Below the pieces are notes generated by a model. It made no database searches. It was not told the DNA's origin and saw nothing but the letters and a program-made list of their open reading frames with translations. Source: a phage. From it: a stretch of 49,773 nucleotides of DNA. The stretch lies in sequence record PZ715804.1, one strand, 5' to 3'. A program made the position numbers and the translations under genes. Positions 1-43,655 of this stretch are shown piece by piece; within the stretch, counting starts at the first letter, position 1; each line of letters begins with the position of its first letter.

Positions 1-275
1 ATGGCGTTTATAATAACTATGGAATTAAGCCTATCACGGTTGTTGGTTGGAACTTTTTGTCAGCAGGACAGAATTCAGCATCGTTCAGCTATCAAGTTCC
101 TCCTGGTATGCATGTGAATTACGTTATAAGCCTTGACGATGGCGCCATTAGTGGGCCTGGCAGGAAAATTATTGCTAGTGGTAATACGATAACAGTAACG
201 CCAACAAACTCACCCGAGCCAAACGTGTATCCATCATCAAACTGTTACTTAATAGCATATCTGGAGAATGATTAA
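1..275 (+). CDS. hypothetical protein, 3' portion truncated by window start (codon phase starts at nt 3); likely the continuation of the ORF that starts at 49743 if the genome is circular
   Basis: Open frame from window edge to TAA at 273-275; junction with the window end is in frame. Confidence 0.4.
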   Translation, partial: GVYNNYGIKPITVVGWNFLSAGQNSASFSYQVPPGMHVNYVISLDDGAISGPGRKIIASGNTITVTPTNSPEPNVYPSSNCYLIAYLEND

Positions 276-964
276 TGTCATACGGTGCTTTTATAGATGT
301 AAACGGAAACCCATTCATAACCCCGTTATCCACGCCATTCGCCTTATATGCGAAAGGGGAAATTCAATCAGTAAATGTTAGTGGTTCACAGGTTGCGGAG
401 AGATATGTTCGGATACCTACAGGTGTTCCGGTTATAGCTTTTTGCAAAACAACAAACACGCAGCAGGGGACCGCGCTTTCAGCCTTTACTTTCAGAAGCG
501 GACCCAATGTTGGAACTGTTTATATAAGGGGGACAAATCCAGCAAACCAATCATACACGCTAACATATTACATATTTGCCATATTTGAGCAGTCACTACC
601 GAGCTGGGGTATGGCAATATGGGATGCGTCAGGAAAGCTAGTGCTGACAAATGAGACAAAAGTCCTTAGTGATTTGGTTACAATCGGCACTCCTGGGTAC
701 GCTGGCGGTGGGCTAAACATAGACGCAACACTCAGCGGAAGCTACGCAGTTGTCCCAACTATACTTGGCAACTATCAAATTGTTATCGGCAGATTGCCAA
801 CTGGGCAACCCATAATAGGAAACTCAACAGCAGGCAGTTCATGCAGATACAACGGGAGCACAACGAGAATAAATGCAGCAGCAACCACTGCGGCAGGTCG
901 GATATTGAACACCACGAATAATGGAAATATTATAACAGCAATAAAAACGGCAGCATACGACTAA
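275..964 (+). CDS. hypothetical protein (229 aa), possibly tail/fibre-associated given position downstream of J-like gene
   Basis: ORF track; GGAGA RBS before ATG 275; intrinsic terminator follows. Confidence 0.45.
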   Translation: MSYGAFIDVNGNPFITPLSTPFALYAKGEIQSVNVSGSQVAERYVRIPTGVPVIAFCKTTNTQQGTALSAFTFRSGPNVGTVYIRGTNPANQSYTLTYYIFAIFEQSLPSWGMAIWDASGKLVLTNETKVLSDLVTIGTPGYAGGGLNIDATLSGSYAVVPTILGNYQIVIGRLPTGQPIIGNSTAGSSCRYNGSTTRINAAATTAAGRILNTTNNGNIITAIKTAAYD

Positions 965-987
965 GCCCCTTTCGGGGCTTTTCTTTT
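965..987 (+). terminator. intrinsic terminator after the 275..964 gene
   Basis: GCCCC-TTTC-GGGGC hairpin then TTTTCTTTT. Confidence 0.7.
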
Positions 988-1213
988 ACATCGAGCAATC
1001 GTGAGACTTGAAGTTATTCTCTGATACGTAATGGAATGAGAATGGATACCCAGCACGCAACAGCATCTCATCACCGCGCATCTTTGATCCAAAAACGGAA
1101 ACCGAGTACTCTGCGTCACCTGATTCATAAATCGCAGTACAAGTGCGCTCAGGCATCGATGAGCAACCAGTCAGGATGAATGCCGCAGCAATAATGGTGA
1201 TTAATTTTTTCAT
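986..1213 (-). CDS. cor: Cor-like small lipoprotein (superinfection exclusion candidate)
   Basis: 75 aa from internal Met with GAGGA RBS; signal peptide MKKLITIIAAAFILTGC with lipobox LTGC; location after tail-tip genes as in T1/phi80-type phages. Confidence 0.5.
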   Translation of the reverse strand: MKKLITIIAAAFILTGCSSMPERTCTAIYESGDAEYSVSVFGSKMRGDEMLLRAGYPFSFHYVSENNFKSHDCSM

Positions 1214-1741: not shown

Positions 1742-2806
1742 ATGTTCCAGGTGTTCACATCAAGTCAGCTTTCTAATGACGAGTATCATAGCAACGAAGG
1801 TTGGGCGGCAGAGTATGTAAGCGGTTCTAGCCTTGCAGAAATTTATCAGACTTGCCCGGCTAACTGGAGATTCAAGAAGAATGAGACAACGAAGGCGCTG
1901 GAGTTTGGTACTCAGTCGCATACCAACTTTGAGAGCCGAGATCTGTTTACTGCAACGTATGCACGTTGTCCGGCTCCGTCAGAGTTCAAGGATCTGATTA
2001 CGTCACAAGCCGCACTGGCTGCAAAATTAAAATCTTTCGGCCTGAAAGGTACATCCGGTAAGCAGTACCCGGACCTCATCAAGATGATGGTTGATTGCGG
2101 TGAAGAGCTAAACGTCCAATATCTGATCGAGTTGATTGCGGAAGCAGAGGCGCGCTCTGAAGGAAAGAAATTGGTTGACGCTGACAAATACGACGCTTGC
2201 ATGAAGATGAGAGCAATCCTTGAACAAAATCCTGATCACGAAGCGTGCATCAACAGTGAAACGGCGCAGCGTGAGATTTCAATCTTCGGTGAGATATCCG
2301 GCGTCAAGGTTAAGGTTCGACTTGACCATCTGGACTACAAAGAGAATGTTCCAGGTCGTGTCCTGACTGGTTATGATGAGAATGGAGATCCGGTATTCGA
2401 AGATGTTATTTTCCCTGAAGCACTGATTATCACTGACTTCAAAACAACAATGAGCGCCAACCCGTTAGAGTTCCCGAGACTGGCATACAATCACGGGTAT
2501 TATCTGAAAATGGCCTTGCAGCATGATCTGCTACGACGCGCAATCCAGGCTGGCGCTTTTGAAGGCAACTTCCCGGAAGATATCCCGATCGTAGTTCGAT
2601 TGCTGGCTCAGGAGAAAAAAGAGCCTTACATCGCACTTGCTTACCGTATGACTATGGAGCAAATCAGGATCGGTCGTAGCCAGTATGTTAGCGTAGTCCA
2701 CACTTACAAGGCTTGCTCTGAAATGGATGTTTGGCCTGGGTACGCTGGCGACGCAAGCGAGATTGAACTTGAAACGCCATCATGGGTGCGTTACCAAAAT
2801 AAGTAA
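1742..2806 (+). CDS. PD-(D/E)XK family exonuclease (recombination exonuclease)
   Basis: 354 aa; motifs RLDHLD and IITDFKTT (D-x-K) plus YNHGYYLK; sits immediately upstream of ERF and SSB. Confidence 0.55.
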   Translation: MFQVFTSSQLSNDEYHSNEGWAAEYVSGSSLAEIYQTCPANWRFKKNETTKALEFGTQSHTNFESRDLFTATYARCPAPSEFKDLITSQAALAAKLKSFGLKGTSGKQYPDLIKMMVDCGEELNVQYLIELIAEAEARSEGKKLVDADKYDACMKMRAILEQNPDHEACINSETAQREISIFGEISGVKVKVRLDHLDYKENVPGRVLTGYDENGDPVFEDVIFPEALIITDFKTTMSANPLEFPRLAYNHGYYLKMALQHDLLRRAIQAGAFEGNFPEDIPIVVRLLAQEKKEPYIALAYRMTMEQIRIGRSQYVSVVHTYKACSEMDVWPGYAGDASEIELETPSWVRYQNK

Positions 2807-13237: not shown

Positions 13238-13725
13238 TGAGTTTAAAAAATAACGTTATAGGCGCATCGATCGGGGCCGCTTTGACGTTGACGCCTACCC
13301 TACTGGAACGAATCGAAGGTATAGAGTACGAGGTGTATTACGATATCGCCGGAGTACCTACCGTATGCAGCGGAATAACCGGGCCTGACGTAATACCTGG
13401 TAAGAAATACACTAAGCGAGAATGCGATGCATTGCTGATAAAACATATCGGAGTCGCTCAGCGATACGTTGACAAAAAGGTAAATGTTGATATTCCTGTA
13501 ACGATGCGCGCGTCACTGTACAGCTTCACTTTCAACGTCGGTACTGGCGCGTTCGGATCTTCTACAATGCTTAAGCTAATAAATCAGAGTAAGCACAAGG
13601 AAGCGTGCAATCAGTTATGGCGATGGGTATACTACTACAACCCAAAAACCAAAAAGCGCGAAGTGTCTAGAGGACTAAAGAACCGACGCGCTGAAGAATA
13701 CGCGTATTGCGTTAAGGAATTATGA
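13237..13725 (+). CDS. SAR endolysin (GH24 lysozyme, R21-like)
   Basis: 162 aa; N-terminal signal-anchor-release segment [17 protein letters not shown]; catalytic E-x8-D-x5-T ([16 protein letters not shown]); [13 protein letters not shown]. Confidence 0.9.
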
Positions 13726-14126
13726 TGAAACTGAAGAAAACGTGCATTGCGATTGCAGTGGCTGTTGGCGTTATTTCCCTATCCGGTTGTTCGACGGCAT
13801 CTGCCCTGAGCGGTTTAATCGGATCTAAACCGGAAGTTACAGCACAAATCGGAGAGGAGAACACAAAGCAATTAGCAGGAGTAACCGCAAAATCCGAAGA
13901 TAAGCGAGATGTTAAAGTTGAGAAGTCCAATGTAGGAAAGATTGACTCTTCCTTGAAGAAGTCAATTGAAGTGTCAACCATTAAGGCTAACACGGTTAAC
14001 GCTGAAAGCATCACAGTAACAAAACCGGAAAACTGGTACGATGCTATCGTTGGCTGGATTCTCGTTTTTATCGGTCTATTGCTGGTTTATTTTTCACTCC
14101 GTAAGGACGAAAAAAAGGAGGCTTAG
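13722..14126 (+). CDS. unimolecular spanin (T1 gp11-type)
   Basis: 134 aa; N-terminal lipoprotein signal with lipobox LSGC and C-terminal transmembrane helix [15 protein letters not shown]. Confidence 0.75.
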
Positions 14127-20854: not shown

Positions 20855-21013
20855 ATGAGCAAGATTAAAAGTGAAAGCAAAAATAGCATTAGCAGTCACA
20901 TGGACGCGTTCAAGCTGGATGCTAAAAAACTGAGCACGAACCGCATTCGACTTAGTGACGTAAACGAGATCGTTCGCCAGATGAAAGAGCATATTGAAAA
21001 GTGTGGACTGTGA
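20855..21013 (+). CDS. small hypothetical protein
   Basis: 52 aa (MSKIKSESKN...), not in track; ATG 3 nt after previous stop. Confidence 0.35.
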   Translation: MSKIKSESKNSISSHMDAFKLDAKKLSTNRIRLSDVNEIVRQMKEHIEKCGL

Positions 21014-21028
21014 TCGCTGAGCGGTAAA

Positions 21029-21071
21029 TAGCACTTTTTGTTAAAGCCCGGTCGAGAGGATCGGGTATTAT
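21029..21071 (+). promoter_or_regulatory. motif-spacer-(-10)-hairpin cassette
   Basis: TAGCACTTTTTGTTAAAG, 22 nt spacer, TATTAT. Confidence 0.5.
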
Positions 21072-21103
21072 CTTTTCATCGACACGATACAGAGGAAACG
21101 AAG

Positions 21104-21298
21104 ATGGAAACGCAAATTGACGTAGTGGTTGTTCAGCGCGATTCAACTCACGAAAATGGTCTGTTCAAGAAAGGAACCGAAATCACGATCGACATTGAGG
21201 ATATGGTGGCGTATCACTCAGGTCTTACCTGGAACGTGGTGCGCGTTGGCAGCGACTACAAACTCAAAGGCTTTAACACTTACTTTGCGGAGGCTTAA
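21104..21298 (+). CDS. hypothetical protein
   Basis: 64 aa from ATG behind GAGGAAACG RBS, downstream of cassette 21029-21071. Confidence 0.5.
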   Translation: METQIDVVVVQRDSTHENGLFKKGTEITIDIEDMVAYHSGLTWNVVRVGSDYKLKGFNTYFAEA

Positions 21299-21300
21299 TT

Positions 21301-21771
21301 ATGGCGACCATTACCGTATTCCTGGCTAAAGATGAGCTTGATGGCGAAATGTCATTCTTCGCGTTTGAGCACAAGACAGGATCGCACTGGCATACGTACA
21401 CTCACTACACGGTCATATCAATTGAGGCGTACGATGACGAACTGCTCACTGACAAACTGAGTAATTTCATTGAAGCCGTTAAAGCTAGCGGCGGCTGCGA
21501 GTGGAAGGAAGATCACGAAGTTATGCGAATGTTTGAGATGGTCAATCCGGTTCGCCTTGAGTCGTTCGAACTTGATGCTGATGTGACTATCAAGGTGAGA
21601 AAGTCGGGTGAGCTATTGCCAGGGATGCGTGTGCTGACTGGTTACTCGGGCCGTAAGGTGTGGCGCACTGTATCTAAGATTCGCCAGCGTTCGGCAACAT
21701 GCTATAGCGTATTCTTTGATGATGGTTGGAATATGATGTCAGGCAGTGAGGTAAAGTATCTCACCAAATAG
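21301..21771 (+). CDS. hypothetical protein
   Basis: 156 aa; stop TAG is the first triplet of a motif copy. Confidence 0.55.
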   Translation: MATITVFLAKDELDGEMSFFAFEHKTGSHWHTYTHYTVISIEAYDDELLTDKLSNFIEAVKASGGCEWKEDHEVMRMFEMVNPVRLESFELDADVTIKVRKSGELLPGMRVLTGYSGRKVWRTVSKIRQRSATCYSVFFDDGWNMMSGSEVKYLTK

Positions 21772-21817
21772 CACTAATTGTTAAAACAGGATCGGGGTAT
21801 CTTGCTATAGTTACCCC
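21769..21817 (+). promoter_or_regulatory. motif-spacer-(-10)-hairpin cassette
   Basis: TAGCACTAATTGTTAAAAC, 22 nt spacer, TATAGT in hairpin GGGGTA...TACCCC. Confidence 0.55.
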
Positions 21818-21849
21818 ATCAAAACGAGATACCAATCAGAGGATTCACC

Positions 21850-22080
21850 ATGTCAATCATCAAGAACCAACAAGCCATCGACTCAACCAGCCACAACCGC
21901 TTTGCTATTTTCATCACTCGCGACAACAAGCGATTTGCTGTCAGGGCCGTACCGGGTGGGTACAAAACATACATGGAAAATAACGGAAAGTGGGTGCGCT
22001 GCGAAAACCTTGCAAACTTCTTGGTATGGAATGGCGAGTTTCAAGGTCGTGATGATATCAGCACTTTAATTGAGGAATAA
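21850..22080 (+). CDS. hypothetical protein
   Basis: 76 aa; ACCAATCAGAGGA RBS context. Confidence 0.5.
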   Translation: MSIIKNQQAIDSTSHNRFAIFITRDNKRFAVRAVPGGYKTYMENNGKWVRCENLANFLVWNGEFQGRDDISTLIEE

Positions 22081-22086
22081 ATAATC

Positions 22087-22314
22087 ATGCCGAGTTACAG
22101 TAACCTAACCAAACTAATCCGCGTAAACGGGCACATGATCCCGGCCAAATCTACTCACTGCGCGAAAGGCGCAAAACACGGATTATATTTCAAGTGGCGC
22201 GGTCAGTGGAACTTCACAGCGGTGAGTAATTTTTACATGCGAGTGCCTGGAGACGATCCGCAATCGGTAGTAGAAAACTCAATCGGTGAAAACAAGATCG
22301 AGGTACTAAAATGA
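22087..22314 (+). CDS. hypothetical protein
   Basis: 75 aa; ORF track. Confidence 0.5.
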   Translation: MPSYSNLTKLIRVNGHMIPAKSTHCAKGAKHGLYFKWRGQWNFTAVSNFYMRVPGDDPQSVVENSIGENKIEVLK

Positions 22315-22421
22315 ACTTCAATACAATAGCGCTATGGTCTGCCGTCTGGTTCTTCTGCATGGGTCACGTCATGGTCGGCATCGCGGTAATGCTTCTCCTG
22401 TGTGCGGGGGCGTTCGAATGA
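22311..22421 (+). CDS. small hydrophobic membrane peptide
   Basis: 36 aa (MNFNTIALWSAVWFFCMGHVMVGIAVMLLLCAGAFE), not in track; GAGG RBS; start overlaps previous stop. Confidence 0.35.
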   Translation: MNFNTIALWSAVWFFCMGHVMVGIAVMLLLCAGAFE

Positions 22422-22591
22422 TGCGGATTCTGATTTGCATGATGGCAGCGGTAGCTCTTGCTATCCTGTTAGTGTCAGGCTGCGTAGAGGTAAAAGATAG
22501 ATGCCACAAGACCGGAGGCCAGGTTACTACGTTTGTGATGGTTGGCAACGTTTTGCTACCAATCACATCAAATGAGATCACTTGCGAATAG
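22418..22591 (+). CDS. small lipoprotein
   Basis: 57 aa from internal Met; signal MMRILICMMAAVALAILLVSGC with lipobox LVSGC. Confidence 0.45.
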   Translation: MMRILICMMAAVALAILLVSGCVEVKDRCHKTGGQVTTFVMVGNVLLPITSNEITCE

Positions 22592-22600
22592 GATGTTAAA

Positions 22601-22792
22601 ATGGCTGATTTTATGCACCAAATGATTGCAGTATTCAAAGGTAGTGATGACCAGGAAGTGAAAGAGTGCTTTACCGTTGACAAGCCTTATAACGCGTCAC
22701 TAACCAGCTTCGGGAATATCTCATTGCTTGATGATAATGGCGATCCCTGGATATTCGATGAAGATACGGATTGCTTCGAAATTAAAGAATAG
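22601..22792 (+). CDS. small acidic hypothetical protein
   Basis: 63 aa; stop TAG is the first triplet of a motif copy. Confidence 0.45.
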   Translation: MADFMHQMIAVFKGSDDQEVKECFTVDKPYNASLTSFGNISLLDDNGDPWIFDEDTDCFEIKE

Positions 22793-22838
22793 CACTTTTT
22801 GTTAAAACGCGTTCATGGGGTTGCGATATAGTAACCCC
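22790..22838 (+). promoter_or_regulatory. motif-spacer-(-10)-hairpin cassette
   Basis: TAGCACTTTTTGTTAAAAC, 22 nt spacer, TATAGT in hairpin GGGGTT...AACCCC. Confidence 0.55.
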
Positions 22839-22863
22839 ATCAACAACGAAACGAGGATTTACC

Positions 22864-23070
22864 ATGAAGCTGCGATGCATTGAATCAAATCAGATTAACT
22901 ATCATGAAGGATTTGAATACATGGCTCAAATCGATAGCTTTGTCAACAAAAACGGAGAGGTTATTGATGTGGTTCATGGAGTGTATACGTGGTTCTACTT
23001 TGACAAGAAAGCGCTAACGGCCACTAAGCGTAATGGTGATGTAGTTGCTAAATTTAAACGTGAACAGTGA
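22864..23070 (+). CDS. small hypothetical protein (MKxxKC small-domain family)
   Basis: 68 aa (MKLRCIESNQINYHEGFEY...). Confidence 0.5.
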   Translation: MKLRCIESNQINYHEGFEYMAQIDSFVNKNGEVIDVVHGVYTWFYFDKKALTATKRNGDVVAKFKREQ

Positions 23071-24560: not shown

Positions 24561-24834
24561 TAAGTTAAAAATCGCCCCGGTACATTTCATCGGAGTAATG
24601 AACGGAACCAAAACGGCAGAGTTCCGCATCAATGACCGCAACTTCCAGCCTGGCGATATCCTGGAGCTATGCGAGTTCGATCGTGACGAGTTTACCGGGT
24701 GGGAAGTACACGCCAGGGTATCAGATGTTACCGATGTGACTCCGTACATCAATCGCTGGTATGACGACAAAGAATGTGACTTCACGCAATACGTGATGTT
24801 ATCAATCAAGCCTTACAGGAAGATTAGACCATGA
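24547..24834 (+). CDS. ASCH-like / DUF3850-like small protein
   Basis: 95 aa; pattern HKLKIAPVHFIGVMNGTKTAEFRINDRNFQPGDIL recalled as DUF3850-type. Confidence 0.5.
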   Translation: MSKTHKLKIAPVHFIGVMNGTKTAEFRINDRNFQPGDILELCEFDRDEFTGWEVHARVSDVTDVTPYINRWYDDKECDFTQYVMLSIKPYRKIRP

Positions 24835-25469
24835 AATTTGAATGCGTATCGAGTAGTGGATCGGGCTTTAAGTGGGGCAGGGTGTACGAAGGCGCTAGAG
24901 TGAATGATGACAGCTTCGTTATTGTTGATGAGCACGGTTGCAACGTGAATGTTGTCCGGCTCCACGAATATCAGGAAATTTTTCTGCCGTATTGCAATAG
25001 TTCAAAATACATCGTCCATCGAATCGTGTATGGTGTTAAATTTAACGACGTAATCGAAGCAATCAACCAACTGCATAATAAAGAGGTAAAATTTATGAAA
25101 TTCGAATGTATCAGCGATAACACCAAAAAATTCACTGTTGGCAAAATCTACGATGTGCCTACTGAGCACGCAAAGCACACTGTAGCGCTTACTGACGACA
25201 CGGGCCGTCACCGCATTGCAACCGTAACTCACAATGGTGAAGGTCTTCGCTGGAATAGCGGCGGCACTAAGTTTGCAACGTTCGGCAAGAAGCGTAAGCG
25301 CACTTTTTGCGTAAATGGCAAGGTTGCAGCAAACAAGATCCACAACGTCAAGCCGTCGGAAGTTGACCGTAAGCCAGCAATGAAGTTTGAAGAGAAAGCA
25401 GATTTGTCTGGTCTGGCTATCGCTCTTGTTCTCCTGGTCGCTTCTATTTCGCTGATGTTCATCATGTAA
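24831..25469 (+). CDS. membrane-anchored protein with two tandem MKFEC-type small domains and C-terminal transmembrane helix
   Basis: 212 aa; internal repeat MKFECVSSSGSGFKWGRVYEG / MKFECISDNTKKFTVGKIYDV; C-terminal LAIALVLLVASISLMFIM. Confidence 0.5.
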   Translation: MKFECVSSSGSGFKWGRVYEGARVNDDSFVIVDEHGCNVNVVRLHEYQEIFLPYCNSSKYIVHRIVYGVKFNDVIEAINQLHNKEVKFMKFECISDNTKKFTVGKIYDVPTEHAKHTVALTDDTGRHRIATVTHNGEGLRWNSGGTKFATFGKKRKRTFCVNGKVAANKIHNVKPSEVDRKPAMKFEEKADLSGLAIALVLLVASISLMFIM

Positions 25470-25522: not shown

Positions 25523-25633
25523 ATGCCAGACTTTTCTAACTGGAATAACGAGCCGCCATCATTTCAGGAGTTGCTATTCTGCCTCCTGGTTCTGACAATA
25601 TCTCTTAAGGGTGTTTTATGGCTACTATCATGA
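25523..25633 (+). CDS. small hydrophobic peptide
   Basis: 36 aa, not in track; ATG behind terminator-like hairpin plus GGAG RBS. Confidence 0.3.
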   Translation: MPDFSNWNNEPPSFQELLFCLLVLTISLKGVLWLLS

Positions 25634-29265: not shown

Positions 29266-29493
29266 ATGACAATTTTTTTATTGATTATCGCTGGTGTCAT
29301 TATTTTTGGTGCTGGTTTGTTTGCTGGCTTCGCACTTGTGGCGGCAGCAATTGCGATGGACGCGAAGGATAAAACTGGTGTATGGCTGACCTACTCGCCT
29401 AAGAAGGATCAATGGGAAATGACTGGCGACCTTGCTCACTGCTACTCTAAAGCTCAGACCCACCCTAAAGGCATTAAACGACGATTATCGTGA
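29266..29493 (+). CDS. small membrane protein
   Basis: 75 aa; N-terminal hydrophobic stretch then charged tail; AAGGAG RBS; strong terminator follows. Confidence 0.45.
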   Translation: MTIFLLIIAGVIIFGAGLFAGFALVAAAIAMDAKDKTGVWLTYSPKKDQWEMTGDLAHCYSKAQTHPKGIKRRLS

Positions 29494-30124: not shown

Positions 30125-30141
30125 ACATGGGAGACTTAATC

Positions 30142-31710
30142 ATGATTCAATGGGAAGACCTTAACGCAACGCAGAAGTTAGCGATCAAGAAAATGAGCGA
30201 GGCCAATTTCGAAAAAATGATTCGGATCTGGTTCCAGCTTATGCAGGCGCAGCAGTTCCAGCCTAACTGGCATCACCTTTACCTATGTCACGAAGTGGAG
30301 GAAATAATTGCAGGCCGACGCGGCAACACTATCTTTAACGTCACGCCTGGTTCCGGTAAAACTGAAGTGTTCTCAATTCACCTTCCGGTATACGCAATGC
30401 TCAAGTGTAAAAAGGTGCGAAACCTTAACGTGTCGTTTGCCGACAGCTTGGTTAAGCGTAACAGTAAGCGTGTCCGTGAGATTATCAGCAGCAACGAATT
30501 TCAAGAGCTATGGCCTTGCAAGTTCGGCACATCGAAAGACGAGGAGATGCAGGTTCTTAACGAAGATGGAAAGGTTTGGTTTGAGTTGATATCCGCAGCG
30601 GCTGGAGGTCGTATTACAGGTTCGCGTGGTGGCTACATGACGCCGGGATTCTCCGGTATGGTAATGCTCGACGATATCGACAAGCCTGATGATATGTTCT
30701 CAAAGGTTAAGCGTGAGCGTACGCATATGCTACTGAAGAACACCATTCGCTCGCGCCGTATGCACAACGAAACGCCAATCATCGCAATTCAGCAGCGACT
30801 ACACGCACAGGATTCAACATGGTTCATGATGAATGGCGGGATGGGGATCGAGTTTGATCAAATCTCAATTCCGGCACTGGTGACTGAAGAATACGGAAAG
30901 ACGCTTCCTGACTGGTTACAACCATACTTCGAGCGCGACGTTTTGTCGTCTGAGTATGTAGAATTGGATGGAGTTAAGCATTACTCATTCTGGCCCAGCA
31001 AGGAAAGCGTTCACGACCTGTTAGCTCTTCGAGAAGCGGACCAGTATACCTTTGACTCTCAGTATCAGCAGAAGCCGATCGCGCTTGGTGGCTCCGTGTT
31101 CAATTCGGAGTGGTGGACTTATTACGGCAGCAGCCTTGACGCTGATGAGCCGGATCCTGGTAAATATGATTACCGTTTTATCACCGCTGATACCGCTCAG
31201 AAGACAGGTGAGCTAAACGACTACACAGTCTTTTGTTTATGGGGTAAGAAAAACGATAAGGTTTACTTTATCGACGGCATTCGCGGAAAGTGGGAAGCGC
31301 CGGATATGGAGAAGCAATTTACCGCTTTCGTCAACCAAGCATGGAGGCACAATAAATCAATGGGGGTGCTTCGTAAAATCTATGTGGAAGATAAGGCGAG
31401 TGGTACGGGCTTAATCCAGAATCTAAGGAAAAAGACTCCGATATCCATCACTCCATTGCAGCGTAACAAAGACAAAGTTACCCGAGCTATGGATGCCCAG
31501 CCAGTTATTAAAGCCGGGCGCGTGGTTCTGCCAGAAGAGCACCCCATGCTTGCGGAAATTATCGCGGAACATAGCGCGTTCACTTACGATGACACGCATC
31601 CGCACGACGATATTGTCGATAACTTCATGGACGCTGCAAACATTGAACTACTGACAATTGACGATCCTATCGAGAGAATGAAGCGACTCGCCGGGATGGT
31701 TAAGCGGTAA
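30142..31710 (+). CDS. terminase large subunit
   Basis: About 522 aa; Walker A-like VTPGSGKTEV, Walker B-like MVMLDDIDKPDD; start at second ATG behind GGGAGA RBS. Confidence 0.85.
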   Translation: MIQWEDLNATQKLAIKKMSEANFEKMIRIWFQLMQAQQFQPNWHHLYLCHEVEEIIAGRRGNTIFNVTPGSGKTEVFSIHLPVYAMLKCKKVRNLNVSFADSLVKRNSKRVREIISSNEFQELWPCKFGTSKDEEMQVLNEDGKVWFELISAAAGGRITGSRGGYMTPGFSGMVMLDDIDKPDDMFSKVKRERTHMLLKNTIRSRRMHNETPIIAIQQRLHAQDSTWFMMNGGMGIEFDQISIPALVTEEYGKTLPDWLQPYFERDVLSSEYVELDGVKHYSFWPSKESVHDLLALREADQYTFDSQYQQKPIALGGSVFNSEWWTYYGSSLDADEPDPGKYDYRFITADTAQKTGELNDYTVFCLWGKKNDKVYFIDGIRGKWEAPDMEKQFTAFVNQAWRHNKSMGVLRKIYVEDKASGTGLIQNLRKKTPISITPLQRNKDKVTRAMDAQPVIKAGRVVLPEEHPMLAEIIAEHSAFTYDDTHPHDDIVDNFMDAANIELLTIDDPIERMKRLAGMVKR

Positions 31711-40781: not shown

Positions 40782-43655
40782 ATGGTTGATAAGGTAGCAG
40801 GTCTGTCGCTTGACGTTGATGTGTCAACAGTGCAGCGCGCCGTCAAGTCACTGAAAGAGTTTTCAAAGGCCAACGACCAGGCCGCTGATTCTATGGGTTC
40901 TTTAATCAATGAGTCAGAGGTTGCAAAACAGAAGGCCAAAGAACACGCTGAACAACTAAGGCGCCAGAGAAAAGAGTATGAGGCCGTGGAGAAGGCAATC
41001 GATCCTACAGTATCAAAAATGGAAAGGTTGAAGATTGCATCTCAGCAGCTTGATAAACTCTGGCAGCAGGGAGTCGTTCCAGATGAGACGTTTTTCCGTT
41101 TGGGTGAAATGCTGGATCTGCAAAACGCAAAACTTGCTCGCAGCCGGGCTATGCTTACGGAAGAAGGTCAGGCGGCATTGCAGGAAGCGAAAGCAAAAGA
41201 GCAGGCGGCAGCACGAAGCAAGGCGTTCATGGATGCCCTGAATGGTCAAGTTAACGCGATCGGCAAGACTCATGCTGAATTGATGGAACTGAAAGCGGCT
41301 GAGCTTGGTTTATCGAAAGAAGCAGCACCACTAATCGCAAAACTTAAAGATCAAGGCCGAGCTATGAATGCAGCAGGTATTAGCGCCGGGGAATACAGGC
41401 AAGCAATGCGAATGCTTCCTGCACAGATTACCGACGTCGTTACATCTCTTGCGTCCGGCATGCCAGTTTGGATGGTTGCCATCCAGCAAGGCGGTCAAAT
41501 CAAGGACTCGTTCGGCGGGATTGGTAATACGTTTAAAGTGTTGCTGAGTTATATTAATCCAGTCACAGCAGGTATTGGCGTTCTTGTTGGTTCGTTAGGT
41601 CTTCTGGCGAAAGCTGGTTATGACTCTTACAAGTCAATAACTGATATTCAGAATGCGCTTATTGAGACTGGCGGTTATGCAGGTGTTACGGCTGAAGATC
41701 TTGATTCAGTGTCTAAAAAGATCGCGCAGACAAGTAACTCAACCATTGGGAGTATTCGCGAGATTGTAACGGAGTTGGCAAGTTCTGGTAAGTACACCCG
41801 CGAGCAGATCCAGAACATCACTAAGGCTACCGCAGAGTGGTCAGCGTCAACAGGAAAATCAGCAAGTCAAATTATTTCTGAGTTCGACAAAATCGCAAGC
41901 GATCCGGTAAAAGGTCTGAAGAAGTTAAATGAGCAATATAATTTCCTTGAAAAAGGGCAGCTTACCTATATCGATACATTAAGCCGGACGAAAGGAGAAA
42001 CTGAGGCAGTATCTGAAGCAACGAAATTATTCGCCGACGTAATGGAAAAGCGAATGAAGTCAATAGCGGATAATGCTACCCCTCTGGAAAAAATGTGGAA
42101 CGATATTAAACAATGGGCTTCGGACGCGTGGGGATGGGTGGGTGATCATACACTTGGGGCGCTAAACCTGATTATTGATGTGGTTCAGGGTACAGTGATT
42201 CAGGTAAAAATGATTCTTGCGAAAGGTGACGAATACATCTCAAACTTTATTGCCTCTGCGATTAAGGCTACACAGTCTCTTCCTGGTATGAGTGATTTCG
42301 GCGCTGATGTACTGAAGGAGCAGGAGAATATTGTAAAAAGTTCTCGCGACAACTACGATCAGTTATCTTCAGAGCTTGACGCTATTAACGCTCGTGTAGA
42401 AAAAGGAGAGATGGGATACATTGAAGCAATGAGGCAGCGTCGCACTCTTGAAAAGCAGTACAGCGAGGAAACTAAGGAGGCAATAAGGAAAGAAGCAGAA
42501 GAGATCGAGAAGCGAAACCGAGAACGAAATAAGCAGTCGAAAATTGTACGCTCACCGACAGAGCAATTCGACAAGGAGTTAATTTCACTCAAGGCTCAAC
42601 TTAAGGTATTGCAGGAGCACAAGGAGATCGGGCAAAAACTTTCCGCACAGAGAAAGGCGTTGTTTACAACTGAGGCTACGATCGCTGTTCTTCGCGAAGC
42701 CAGCTCTAAGCGTCAGTTGTCTGCGGAAGAAAAAGCGTTGCTGGCAAGTCAGGAGAGAGTTATTGAGCTTGCAAAACAGAAGGCCGAGATTGGCGATCAG
42801 ATTGTTAAGCAACAACAGTTGAATGATCTTACCGATAAATCTCTGAAGTTTGTCAATGAGATGACGGCGGCGACAGAACAGCTTAACGCGTCACGCGGTC
42901 TTAGCACGCGCGAAATGGAACGACAAGCGGAACTGGCTAAAATAACCACTGATTACATCAACTCTGGAGGTAGTGAGGGAGACGAAAAACTCCAGAACAT
43001 GATTAAGGCGCAAAATGATTACTACGCTGCGGAAGATGCCAAGCGTGCTGACTGGTTAGCTGGTGCTGAAAGTGCTTTTGCTGATTACGGTGATGCAGCA
43101 ATGGATATGTACGGCAATGTTAACGATATCGCGTCAAGTGCACTTAACGGAATGTCAGATATGATGGTTCAATTTCTGACCACAGGAAAAGCGAACTTTG
43201 GGGACTTTGCGAAAAATATCATCGGCATGATTATAAAGATGATTGCTCAGATGGTAATCTTCAATACGATCTCAGGCATGATGGGCGGTAAGACGTGGAG
43301 CTTTGCTGGAGGGGCGTCGTCTGGTGCTTCTGCGGCATCACAGGCAACCCCTACACCTGCCGCTTCTGTTTTTAGATCTGCATCATCCGGCGGGGCCGCT
43401 GTATCACTTGCTGCCGCAGCGGGTAGCGTGGCAACCTCTGGATTCAACGCATCAAACTCGGCGCCAAAGGCGATAAACCATTCAGGAGGTGGGACGGTCG
43501 TTGATGTTAGGGGTATGGAGGTTAAAGTTGACAACGGTTCAGATCCGAGAGGAATTTCTCAGGGCGTAGAAATGATGTTCAAAAAAATGATTCGAGAGTC
43601 TTGTTCACAGGGCGGTGAGGTTTACAATTACATTCAGGAAAAAACAGGAGGCTAA
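40782..43655 (+). CDS. tail tape measure protein
   Basis: About 957 aa; coiled-coil-rich; Gly/Ala/Ser-rich C-terminal region; start behind terminator plus AGGGGG RBS. Confidence 0.85.

Follow-up and report, generated by a model that had tools for sequence, protein, structure and literature searches.

Comparative sequence analysis indicates that gp73 and gp72, two small overlapping genes of a phage genome (sequence record PZ715804.1), are genuine protein-coding genes, orthologous to genes of phage T1 and held under purifying selection. The stretch analysed, 49,773 nucleotides in full and referred to below as the window, belongs to a virulent T1-like phage (genus Tunavirus, family Drexlerviridae); T1 itself is a classic model phage and also a notorious contaminant of laboratories. 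The existence of the two genes was already known: the published T1 genome already listed them as hypothetical, and the Shfl1 orthologue of gp72 carries the UniRef name 'Lipoprotein'. What is new here is the purifying selection, the predicted hairpin of gp72, the boundaries and dispensability of the gene cassette in which the two genes reside, their separability and their independence of the receptor-binding module. Function is lacking for about half of the small genes of T1 (PMC13164509). The two genes and the predicted parts of gp72 are as follows.

22311..22421, + strand: gp73 orthologue, 36 amino acids, phrog_25570
22418..22591, + strand: gp72 orthologue, 57-amino-acid predicted prolipoprotein, phrog_8628
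22418..22480, + strand: predicted signal peptide of gp72, residues 1-21
22472..22483, + strand: lipobox of gp72, V-S-G-C
22481..22483, + strand: predicted acylated Cys22 of gp72
22481..22588, + strand: predicted mature part of gp72, 36 residues, 3.9 kDa
22502..22585, + strand: predicted periplasmic beta-hairpin of gp72 (AlphaFold2 and alignment conservation)

The first open reading frame (ORF) translates as MNFNTIALWSAVWFFCMGHVMVGIAVMLLLCAGAFE and the second as MMRILICMMAAVALAILLVSGC followed by VEVKDRCHKTGGQVTTFVMVGNVLLPITSNEITCE. At their junction, GAATGATG, the TGA stop codon of gp73 overlaps the ATG start codon of gp72 (ATGA), and a second ATG codon comes next. The same ATGA overlap links the stop codon of the preceding gene, gp74 (22087..22314), to the start of gp73, and the overlaps are conserved among the aligned relatives. 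Both starts have a Shine-Dalgarno-like sequence 7 nucleotides upstream, GAGG at 22300..22303 for gp73 and GGGGG at 22406..22410 for gp72, the latter being GGGAG in relatives. In an alignment of 18 loci, variation falls mostly at third codon positions. The ratio of nonsynonymous to synonymous polymorphism (pN/pS), calculated from 16 loci, among them the window but not L017 and L018, which carry indels, is 0.107 in the gp73 frame and 0.147 in the gp72 frame, compared with 1.0-3.1 in the other frames of the + strand; the value for the gp74 frame is 0.20. Within gp72 the signal-peptide residues (0.129) and the mature part (0.163) are similarly constrained. Searches against PHROG profiles matched gp73 to phrog_25570 over residues 1-36 of 36 (E=3.7e-26) and gp72 to phrog_8628 over residues 1-57 (E=1.5e-27), both being families without functional annotation. 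The counterparts in T1, ST73 and ST72, are annotated as hypothetical proteins and share 83-86% identity with the window proteins. Low pN/pS, Shine-Dalgarno sites, conserved ATGA overlaps, PHROG matches and annotation in T1 thus all mark the two ORFs as genuine genes, and the overlapping 36- and 57-residue ORFs of the preliminary description proved exact in their coordinates. Two other ORFs at the locus were rejected. An 85-residue ORF at 22334..22591 contains stop codons in two relatives and lacks an ATG in T1, and its N-terminal extension has a pN/pS of 3.1; an antisense ORF of 104 residues at 22369..22683 is interrupted in 12 of the 18 sequences.

The gp73 product is very hydrophobic (grand average of hydropathy 1.54) and has no basic residues, which supports the earlier view of it as a transmembrane peptide; it is predicted to be a 36-residue inner-membrane peptide. 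Its conserved features are a central Gly-His pair and, at the C-terminus, AGAF-E with its Glu. When gp73 was used as a tblastn query, matches were limited to the Tunavirus copies and phage IME347 (MH051918; locus L020), a member of the genus Badaguanvirus that uses YncD as its receptor (PMC8594841). The latter genome encodes an unannotated 36-residue homologue at 1750..1860, MNPLAFGTAIFFLATGHFWLFIVTMILIGAGAFDDD, which matches phrog_25570 (E=6e-5) and is linked to gp73 by reciprocal tblastn matches. It occupies the same relative position and has an ATGA overlap with the preceding gene, while its neighbours are unrelated and there is no gp72.

The lipoprotein assignment of the 57-residue ORF, also made in the preliminary description, holds under the prolipoprotein rule (PROSITE PS51257-type), which places Lys or Arg within the first seven residues, followed by an uncharged hydrophobic core and [LVI][ASTVI][GAS]C with the Cys at position 15-35. 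In gp72 these elements are R3, the core ILICMMAAVALAILL, VSGC and Cys22, and the rule applies to 31 of the 34 distinct sequences of the family. The residue following the acylated Cys (+2) is Val in the window and Gly, Val or Ser in nearly all variants. According to the established +2 rule, a residue other than Asp at this position directs a lipoprotein to the outer membrane through the Lol pathway. With Gly, Val or Ser and not Asp at +2 in almost all variants, gp72 is predicted to be exported, lipidated at Cys22 by Lgt, LspA and Lnt, and transported by Lol to the outer membrane, where it would reside in the inner leaflet. An AlphaFold2 model built from 21 sequences consists of a signal helix (residues 2-19) and two strands (29-42 and 45-56) joined by a turn at Gly43-Asn44. 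The confidence of the model is moderate, with a mean predicted local distance difference test (pLDDT) score of 69 and ~81 in the block of residues 41-50 near the turn. The tip of the hairpin, F39..I49 (TTFVMVGNVLLPITSNEITC), hardly varies and, near its end, has hydrophobic residues on both faces, and the six-residue tether and the base of the hairpin are charged and variable. Cys29 and Cys56, conserved in 19 and 20 of the 21 sequences, respectively, flank the hairpin, and a periplasmic disulfide between them is plausible.

The relationship of gp72 to the known exclusion lipoprotein of the phage, Cor, bears directly on its possible role. Cor is encoded at 986..1213 on the - strand, where the preliminary description had noted a Cor-like lipoprotein, and is 100% identical to the annotated Cor of phages SH2 and JMPW2. 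It adjoins a 229-residue protein (275..964, + strand) corresponding to the FhuA-type 'membrane-associated protein' of the Cor cassette (PMC13164509). At the receptor locus of Shfl1 and Sfin-1 there are a 318-residue JK06-like protein and a 76-residue lipoprotein that shares only the signal peptide with Cor; the J protein of these phages is 95.7% identical to that of the window, and their receptor-binding protein and lipoprotein are unrelated to the 229-residue protein and Cor. Known exclusion lipoproteins of Drexlerviridae are encoded beside the receptor-binding gene downstream of gpJ and change together with it (PMC8594841; PMC12685063). The gp72 gene lies ~21 kb away from the receptor-binding locus, and its product is ~89-91% identical in Shfl1 and Sfin-1 despite their unrelated receptor-binding module. 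It is present in some phages that lack Cor and absent from some Cor/FhuA-type phages; none of three phages with a Cor at least 90% identical to that of the window (CLB_P3, LHE71 and Lg3) is among the gp72 matches. In an hhalign comparison gp72 and Cor were aligned with a probability of 17% over 13 lipobox columns only, and the Pfam search with gp72 gave no match to PF24052. Since gp72 is unrelated to Cor, Llp and Rtp45, distant from their characteristic locus, conserved across receptor modules and missing from some Cor phages, it probably does not mask the receptor of the phage itself, which is the task of Cor. The receptor-masking function suggested in the preliminary description is therefore disfavoured.

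Together with three neighbours, gp73 and gp72 appear to form a single five-gene early expression cassette (gp75, gp74, gp73, gp72 and the gene for an acidic 63-residue protein). Its remaining components are listed below.

21778..21811, + strand: upstream repeat and promoter-like element, TAGCAC..TTGTTAAAAC..TATAGT, with inverted repeat GGGGTA/TACCCC; left edge of the cassette
21850..22080, + strand: gp75-like early protein, 76 amino acids, phrog_11449, similar to T1p75 according to the Shfl1 annotation; first gene of the cassette
22087..22314, + strand: gp74-like protein, 75 amino acids, DUF7274 (Pfam E=1.1e-36), isoelectric point (pI) 9.7, no membrane segment
22601..22792, + strand: acidic 63-residue protein, pI 4.05, phrog_11551; last gene of the cassette
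22799..22832, + strand: downstream repeat and promoter-like element with the exact motif; right edge of the cassette

The cassette is thus flanked by two perfect copies of TTGTTAAA-N20-TATAGT, each with TAGCAC before it and with an inverted repeat. Allowing up to two mismatches, we found 11 copies of the repeat in the window, against 0.47 expected, with the general form TTG[TC]TAAA-N20-TATAGT and a length of ~34 nucleotides each. Eight are on the + strand (10677, 12665, 21038, 21778, 22799, 23578, 24283 and 27723) and three on the - strand (16758, 18389 and 18853). TAGCAC usually stands on their 5' side, and the GC-rich inverted repeat overlaps the -10-like TATAGT. The copies match a 21-nucleotide intergenic direct repeat, aaATAGCACnnnTTGnTAAAA, described for phages TLS, T1 and Rtp and regarded as a candidate promoter, UP element or operator (PMC11447400). 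In the window they delimit gene cassettes; a generic scan of the window for sigma-70 promoters and terminators gave no enrichment over shuffled sequence. The cassette is considered early because it is bracketed by these promoter-like repeats and because its counterpart in T1, including gp73 and gp72, lies inside the 2.8-kb terminal repeat at the left end of the genome, in keeping with the earlier placement of the genes in the early block of a virulent phage. The gene for the 63-residue protein is missing from T1, where the alignment stops after gp72. The composition of this protein resembles that of small DNA-mimic or inhibitor-type anti-defence proteins. An AlphaFold2 model of gp74 (mean pLDDT 55.7) was too low in confidence for use.

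As judged by these searches, the cassette is limited to T1-like phages, that is, Tunavirus and close relatives. gp73 is present in 58 phage records and gp72 in 55, all of them T1-like, and homologues of gp74 were likewise found in T1-like phages only. Neither 5,426 complete genomes of E. coli nor a set of 72,556 plasmids contained a copy of gp72. An exhaustive search of 1.84 billion representative proteins with a gp72 profile hidden Markov model (HMM) retrieved its own family and two borderline matches in repetitive proteins. No family match for gp72 was found in Pfam, NCBIfam or PADLOC at E<=1, and PDB sequences yielded chance matches only at E<=10, none of them to entries for Llp or Rtp45. 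A check for self-mimicry revealed no similarity of the gp72 hairpin or gp73 to the phage's own tail and tape-measure proteins.

Comparative evidence also indicates that the cassette is dispensable for lytic growth, because it is absent from a recognised species, occurs in fewer records than the large terminase gene and has a disrupted gp72 in several isolates. Tunavirus BIFF (Eco_BIFF, NC_047996; locus L024) lacks the stretch of the window at ~21.0-23.07 kb (~21011..23069) and with it the genes for 86- and 156-residue ORFs, gp75, gp74, gp73, gp72 and the genes for 63- and 68-residue ORFs. In their place BIFF carries, at 40949..41260, one gene of 79 residues and a single repeat copy, which aligns with both 21026..21118 and 22788..22858 of the window. 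This comparison suggests that cassettes are gained or lost by recombination between the repeats. Such repeat-bounded exchange is reminiscent of the promoter-stem-loop cassettes of T4-type phages. The large terminase was found at 90% identity or more in 60 records, compared with ~56 records containing the gp75-gp72 region. The gp72 reading frame is shifted at three different junctions in P0019 (insertion of seven nucleotides), P0021 (one additional A) and EF3-1 (a run of nine G), and is also disrupted in vB_SsoS_008 and P0022. All disruptions occur at or near a G/A-rich ACC-GGG run (window ~22505..22520, ACC GGA GGC CAG), and the frameshifts in P0019, P0021 and EF3-1 enter the same +1 frame, ending in ...ATNHIK or ...TTNHIK. 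Sequencing error, a mutational hot spot or repeated loss of a gene that is costly to keep could each account for this recurrence.

What gp73 and gp72 might do together or separately is less clear-cut. The explanation we tentatively favour, as possible rather than probable, is that the gp72 hairpin docks onto a host envelope protein and that the genes exclude superinfecting phages or protect the envelope irrespective of the receptor-binding protein. A prior in its favour is that those early proteins of virulent coliphages that act on the envelope and have been characterised (T4 Imm and Sp, T5 Llp, T1 Cor) serve in exclusion. Under the explanation favoured here, gp73 and gp72 would change the envelope of the newly infected cell. 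The mature part of gp72 would consist of a short charged tether followed by a hairpin of ~13 residues per strand, which should enter the membrane or bind a partner because its hydrophobic tip is unlikely to be free in the periplasm. From the periplasm, the hairpin would attach to or penetrate a conserved protein of the host envelope, as the small exclusion lipoproteins Llp and Rtp45 do with FhuA and LptDE, respectively. A conserved target is suggested by the fact that gp72 follows the phage lineage (J, tail and early region) and not the receptor module. gp73 would act on a target in the inner membrane, possibly independently of gp72. The most likely effect would be either a block of secondary infection at a step that does not depend on the receptor-binding protein, or protection of the envelope or membrane potential; masking of the terminal receptor would be left to Cor. 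The precedent is Rtp45, a lipoprotein of ~6 kDa that contains a disulfide and inserts a long hairpin into the lumen of LptD (PMC12685063). A bolder form of the proposal, which we regard as improbable, is that the hydrophobic hairpin, possibly stapled by the disulfide, sits in the lumen or lateral gate of a conserved outer-membrane barrel or mimics a motif for beta-strand docking, for instance a TonB box, with gp73 as a separable inner-membrane effector and lineage-tracking exclusion or envelope shut-off as the outcome; the two would then constitute a new class of exclusion system.

Several observations weigh against docking and exclusion. Three natural variants of gp72 have no usable lipobox, namely, those of DELF2 (Cys to Phe) and SH6 (Gly to Val at -1), each altered by a single-base change, and a relative on the metagenomic T1-like contig L023, which has none; in addition, gp72 of IME18 has Asp at +2. 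Lipid anchoring in the outer membrane may therefore be non-essential, or these alleles may be defective. Confidence in the AlphaFold2 model is only moderate, a simple strand register in it pairs Cys56 with K31 and not with Cys29, and a Foldseek search of the PDB with the model gave no match at E<=0.001. Searches of Pfam, NCBIfam, PADLOC and PDB and the HMM searches detected no homology to a known exclusion protein or any other family, and the searched literature on T1-like phages contains no functional, essentiality or exclusion data on gp73 or gp72, the KanT1 re-annotation paper not discussing them. The neighbouring genes look cytoplasmic (the basic DUF7274 protein and the acidic 63-residue protein), and a mixture of host-takeover or anti-defence genes would fit equally. 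Finally, as judged from two genomes, gp73 and gp72 are not an obligate pair, so that a joint mechanism is not required: IME347 has gp73 alone, and on contig L023 gp74 is directly followed by the gp72 relative, which has a longer hydrophobic N-terminus, with no gp73 between them. Of the two-gene reading in the preliminary description, the genes and their overlap thus stand, whereas obligate pairing does not, each gene occurring without the other.

The main rival explanation, somewhat unlikely in our judgement, is that gp73 and gp72 serve host takeover or anti-defence, inhibiting a host envelope process (outer-membrane biogenesis, a transporter or a stress sensor, for instance) or a membrane-anchored abortive-infection or defence system and thereby helping the primary infection. 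It accords with the company of small early accessory genes, including those for the basic DUF7274 protein and the 63-residue protein of pI 4.05, with the optional and T1-like-restricted occurrence expected of arms-race accessory genes, and with the presence of the cassette independently of the receptor-binding module. Peptides of ~36 residues can also inhibit inner-membrane enzymes, as the 37-residue lysis protein of phage M does with MurJ. Against it, neither gp73 nor gp72 has a match in PADLOC, Pfam or NCBIfam, we found no link between the cassette and a specific defence system, and outer-membrane lipoproteins of the gp72 type are not known among anti-defence proteins. That gp72 is a second Cor/Llp-type lipoprotein masking the terminal receptor of the phage itself is very unlikely: as a small, early, predicted outer-membrane lipoprotein with a possible disulfide it does resemble Llp, Cor and Rtp45, yet it aligns with Cor in the lipobox only, has no match to PF24052 or to the Llp and Rtp45 entries of the PDB, is ~21 kb from the exclusion locus downstream of gpJ and remains 89-91% conserved amid unrelated receptor modules, and Cor/FhuA-type phages exist without it.

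Control of lysis timing or membrane potential is another candidate function, in which the peptide, the lipoprotein or both would modulate the pinholin, SAR (signal-arrest-release) endolysin and unimolecular-spanin system, for instance in an antiholin-like fashion as a guard against premature lysis. The pinholin and SAR endolysin used by T1-like phages are indeed sensitive to depolarisation of the membrane (PMC13164509, PMC11447400), and the window contains the lysis cassette (~13.2-14.1 kb). We nevertheless consider this function quite doubtful, since gp73 is holin-like solely in being a tiny membrane peptide, and neither protein resembles holin, antiholin or spanin families in PHROG or Pfam. 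The genes also belong to a separate, early transcription unit ~8 kb away from the lysis genes, and mature gp72, with 36 residues and no C-terminal membrane segment, is too short to bridge the periplasm. For similar reasons we rejected a spanin function, Rz1-type or unimolecular: the genes are outside the lysis cassette, mature gp72 has only 36 residues and gp73 has no periplasmic domain. It is also conceivable, though unlikely, that gp72 is anchored in the inner membrane with a periplasmic hairpin, its lipidation being incidental, and that gp73 is unrelated, their overlap reflecting genome compaction; this possibility partly overlaps the others. In its favour are the uncleavable hydrophobic N-terminus of the L023 relative, which has neither lipobox nor gp73, the broken lipoboxes of DELF2 and SH6, the Asp at +2 in IME18, the occurrence of gp73 alone in IME347 and the conservation of the signal residues at the level of the mature part (pN/pS 0.129 versus 0.163). 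However, 31 of the 34 distinct sequences have a canonical lipobox at a fixed position, and the exceptions are single-nucleotide changes in single isolates, which may be defective alleles or sequencing errors.

Comparison with known systems delineates what is distinctive about the two proteins. Exclusion at a stage after receptor binding is represented by T4 Imm and Sp and by HK97 gp15, small proteins of the membrane or periplasm with which a resident phage blocks DNA entry irrespective of receptor binding. Such receptor-independent action fits the lineage-following distribution of gp73 and gp72, although there is no homology in Pfam or PHROG and sizes and topologies differ. Colicin lysis lipoproteins (PF02402, Lysis_col) have ~45-52 residues, of which ~28-35 are in the mature form, and are thus near gp72 in size; however, gp72 has no Pfam match at E<=1 and no homologue in the 72,556 plasmids, and early quasi-lysis would harm the phage. 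The unimolecular spanin of the window, a homologue of T1 gp11 (13722..14126, + strand), is another lipoprotein of this phage and has a signal peptide resembling that of gp72, but it has 134 residues, a C-terminal membrane segment and a location in the lysis cassette, none of which applies to gp72. The FhuA-blocking lipoproteins Cor (T1, phi80 and N15) and Llp (T5) are small, early and envelope-directed, as is predicted for gp72, which differs in aligning with Cor at the lipobox only, in lacking PF24052 and in its distance from the gpJ/receptor locus. The closest parallel in architecture is Rtp45 of phage Rtp (PDB 9RPS; PMC12685063), likewise a tiny lipoprotein of the T1 family: its disulfide may be compared with the conserved Cys pair of gp72, and its long, partly beta-stranded hairpin, which protrudes through the LptD lumen from the periplasm, with the predicted hairpin of gp72. 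The two nevertheless show no similarity in sequence or by Foldseek, gp72 is smaller in its mature form (3.9 kDa), and Rtp45 is encoded beside the receptor-binding protein and varies with it, whereas gp72 belongs to an early cassette independent of that module.

Two T1 genes can now be described as encoding conserved but optional, predicted envelope-targeted proteins that have no relationship to Cor and do not vary with receptor specificity, and the range of experiments needed is narrower as a result. Docking of gp72 onto a conserved outer-membrane protein, if confirmed, would provide a third structural example of a tiny phage lipoprotein acting on barrels from the periplasm, after Llp/FhuA and Rtp45/LptDE, and could lead to a ligand of peptide size for an essential envelope machine; otherwise the two would be ordinary accessory genes. 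As an exclusion factor, gp72 would be set apart from the known small lipoproteins by its sequence and size, by its place in the genome and by its independence of the receptor. For a specialist, it is no surprise that the early region of a phage encodes small envelope proteins, and there is as yet no tie to an open question.

The genomic context of the cassette is that of a typical T1-like phage, the gene order in the window being the T1 map in circularly permuted form. Its main landmarks are the following.

Window ends: tail tip protein J, receptor-binding locus and Cor
~13.2-14.1 kb: lysis cassette with unimolecular spanin
near 19.6-20.3 kb: divergent early control region
~20.3-29.5 kb: rightward block of small early genes, followed by terminase and structural genes

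The gp75-gp72 region shares 80-94% nucleotide identity with those of the T1-like phages Sfin-1, phi2457T, Shfl1, ADB-2, LeonhardEuler and T1. The genome is a mosaic, since its large terminase gene (30127..31710) matches that of phage JMPW1 at 100% identity, whereas the nearest relatives of the gp75-gp72 region are Sfin-type phages (93.5%). Three further proteins encoded on the + strand of the early block have predicted membrane segments. A 212-residue protein (24831..25469) has one at its C-terminus, a 36-residue ORF (25523..25633) is hydrophobic at its C-terminus and predicted to be a small membrane protein, and a 75-residue protein (29266..29493) has a predicted N-terminal membrane segment.

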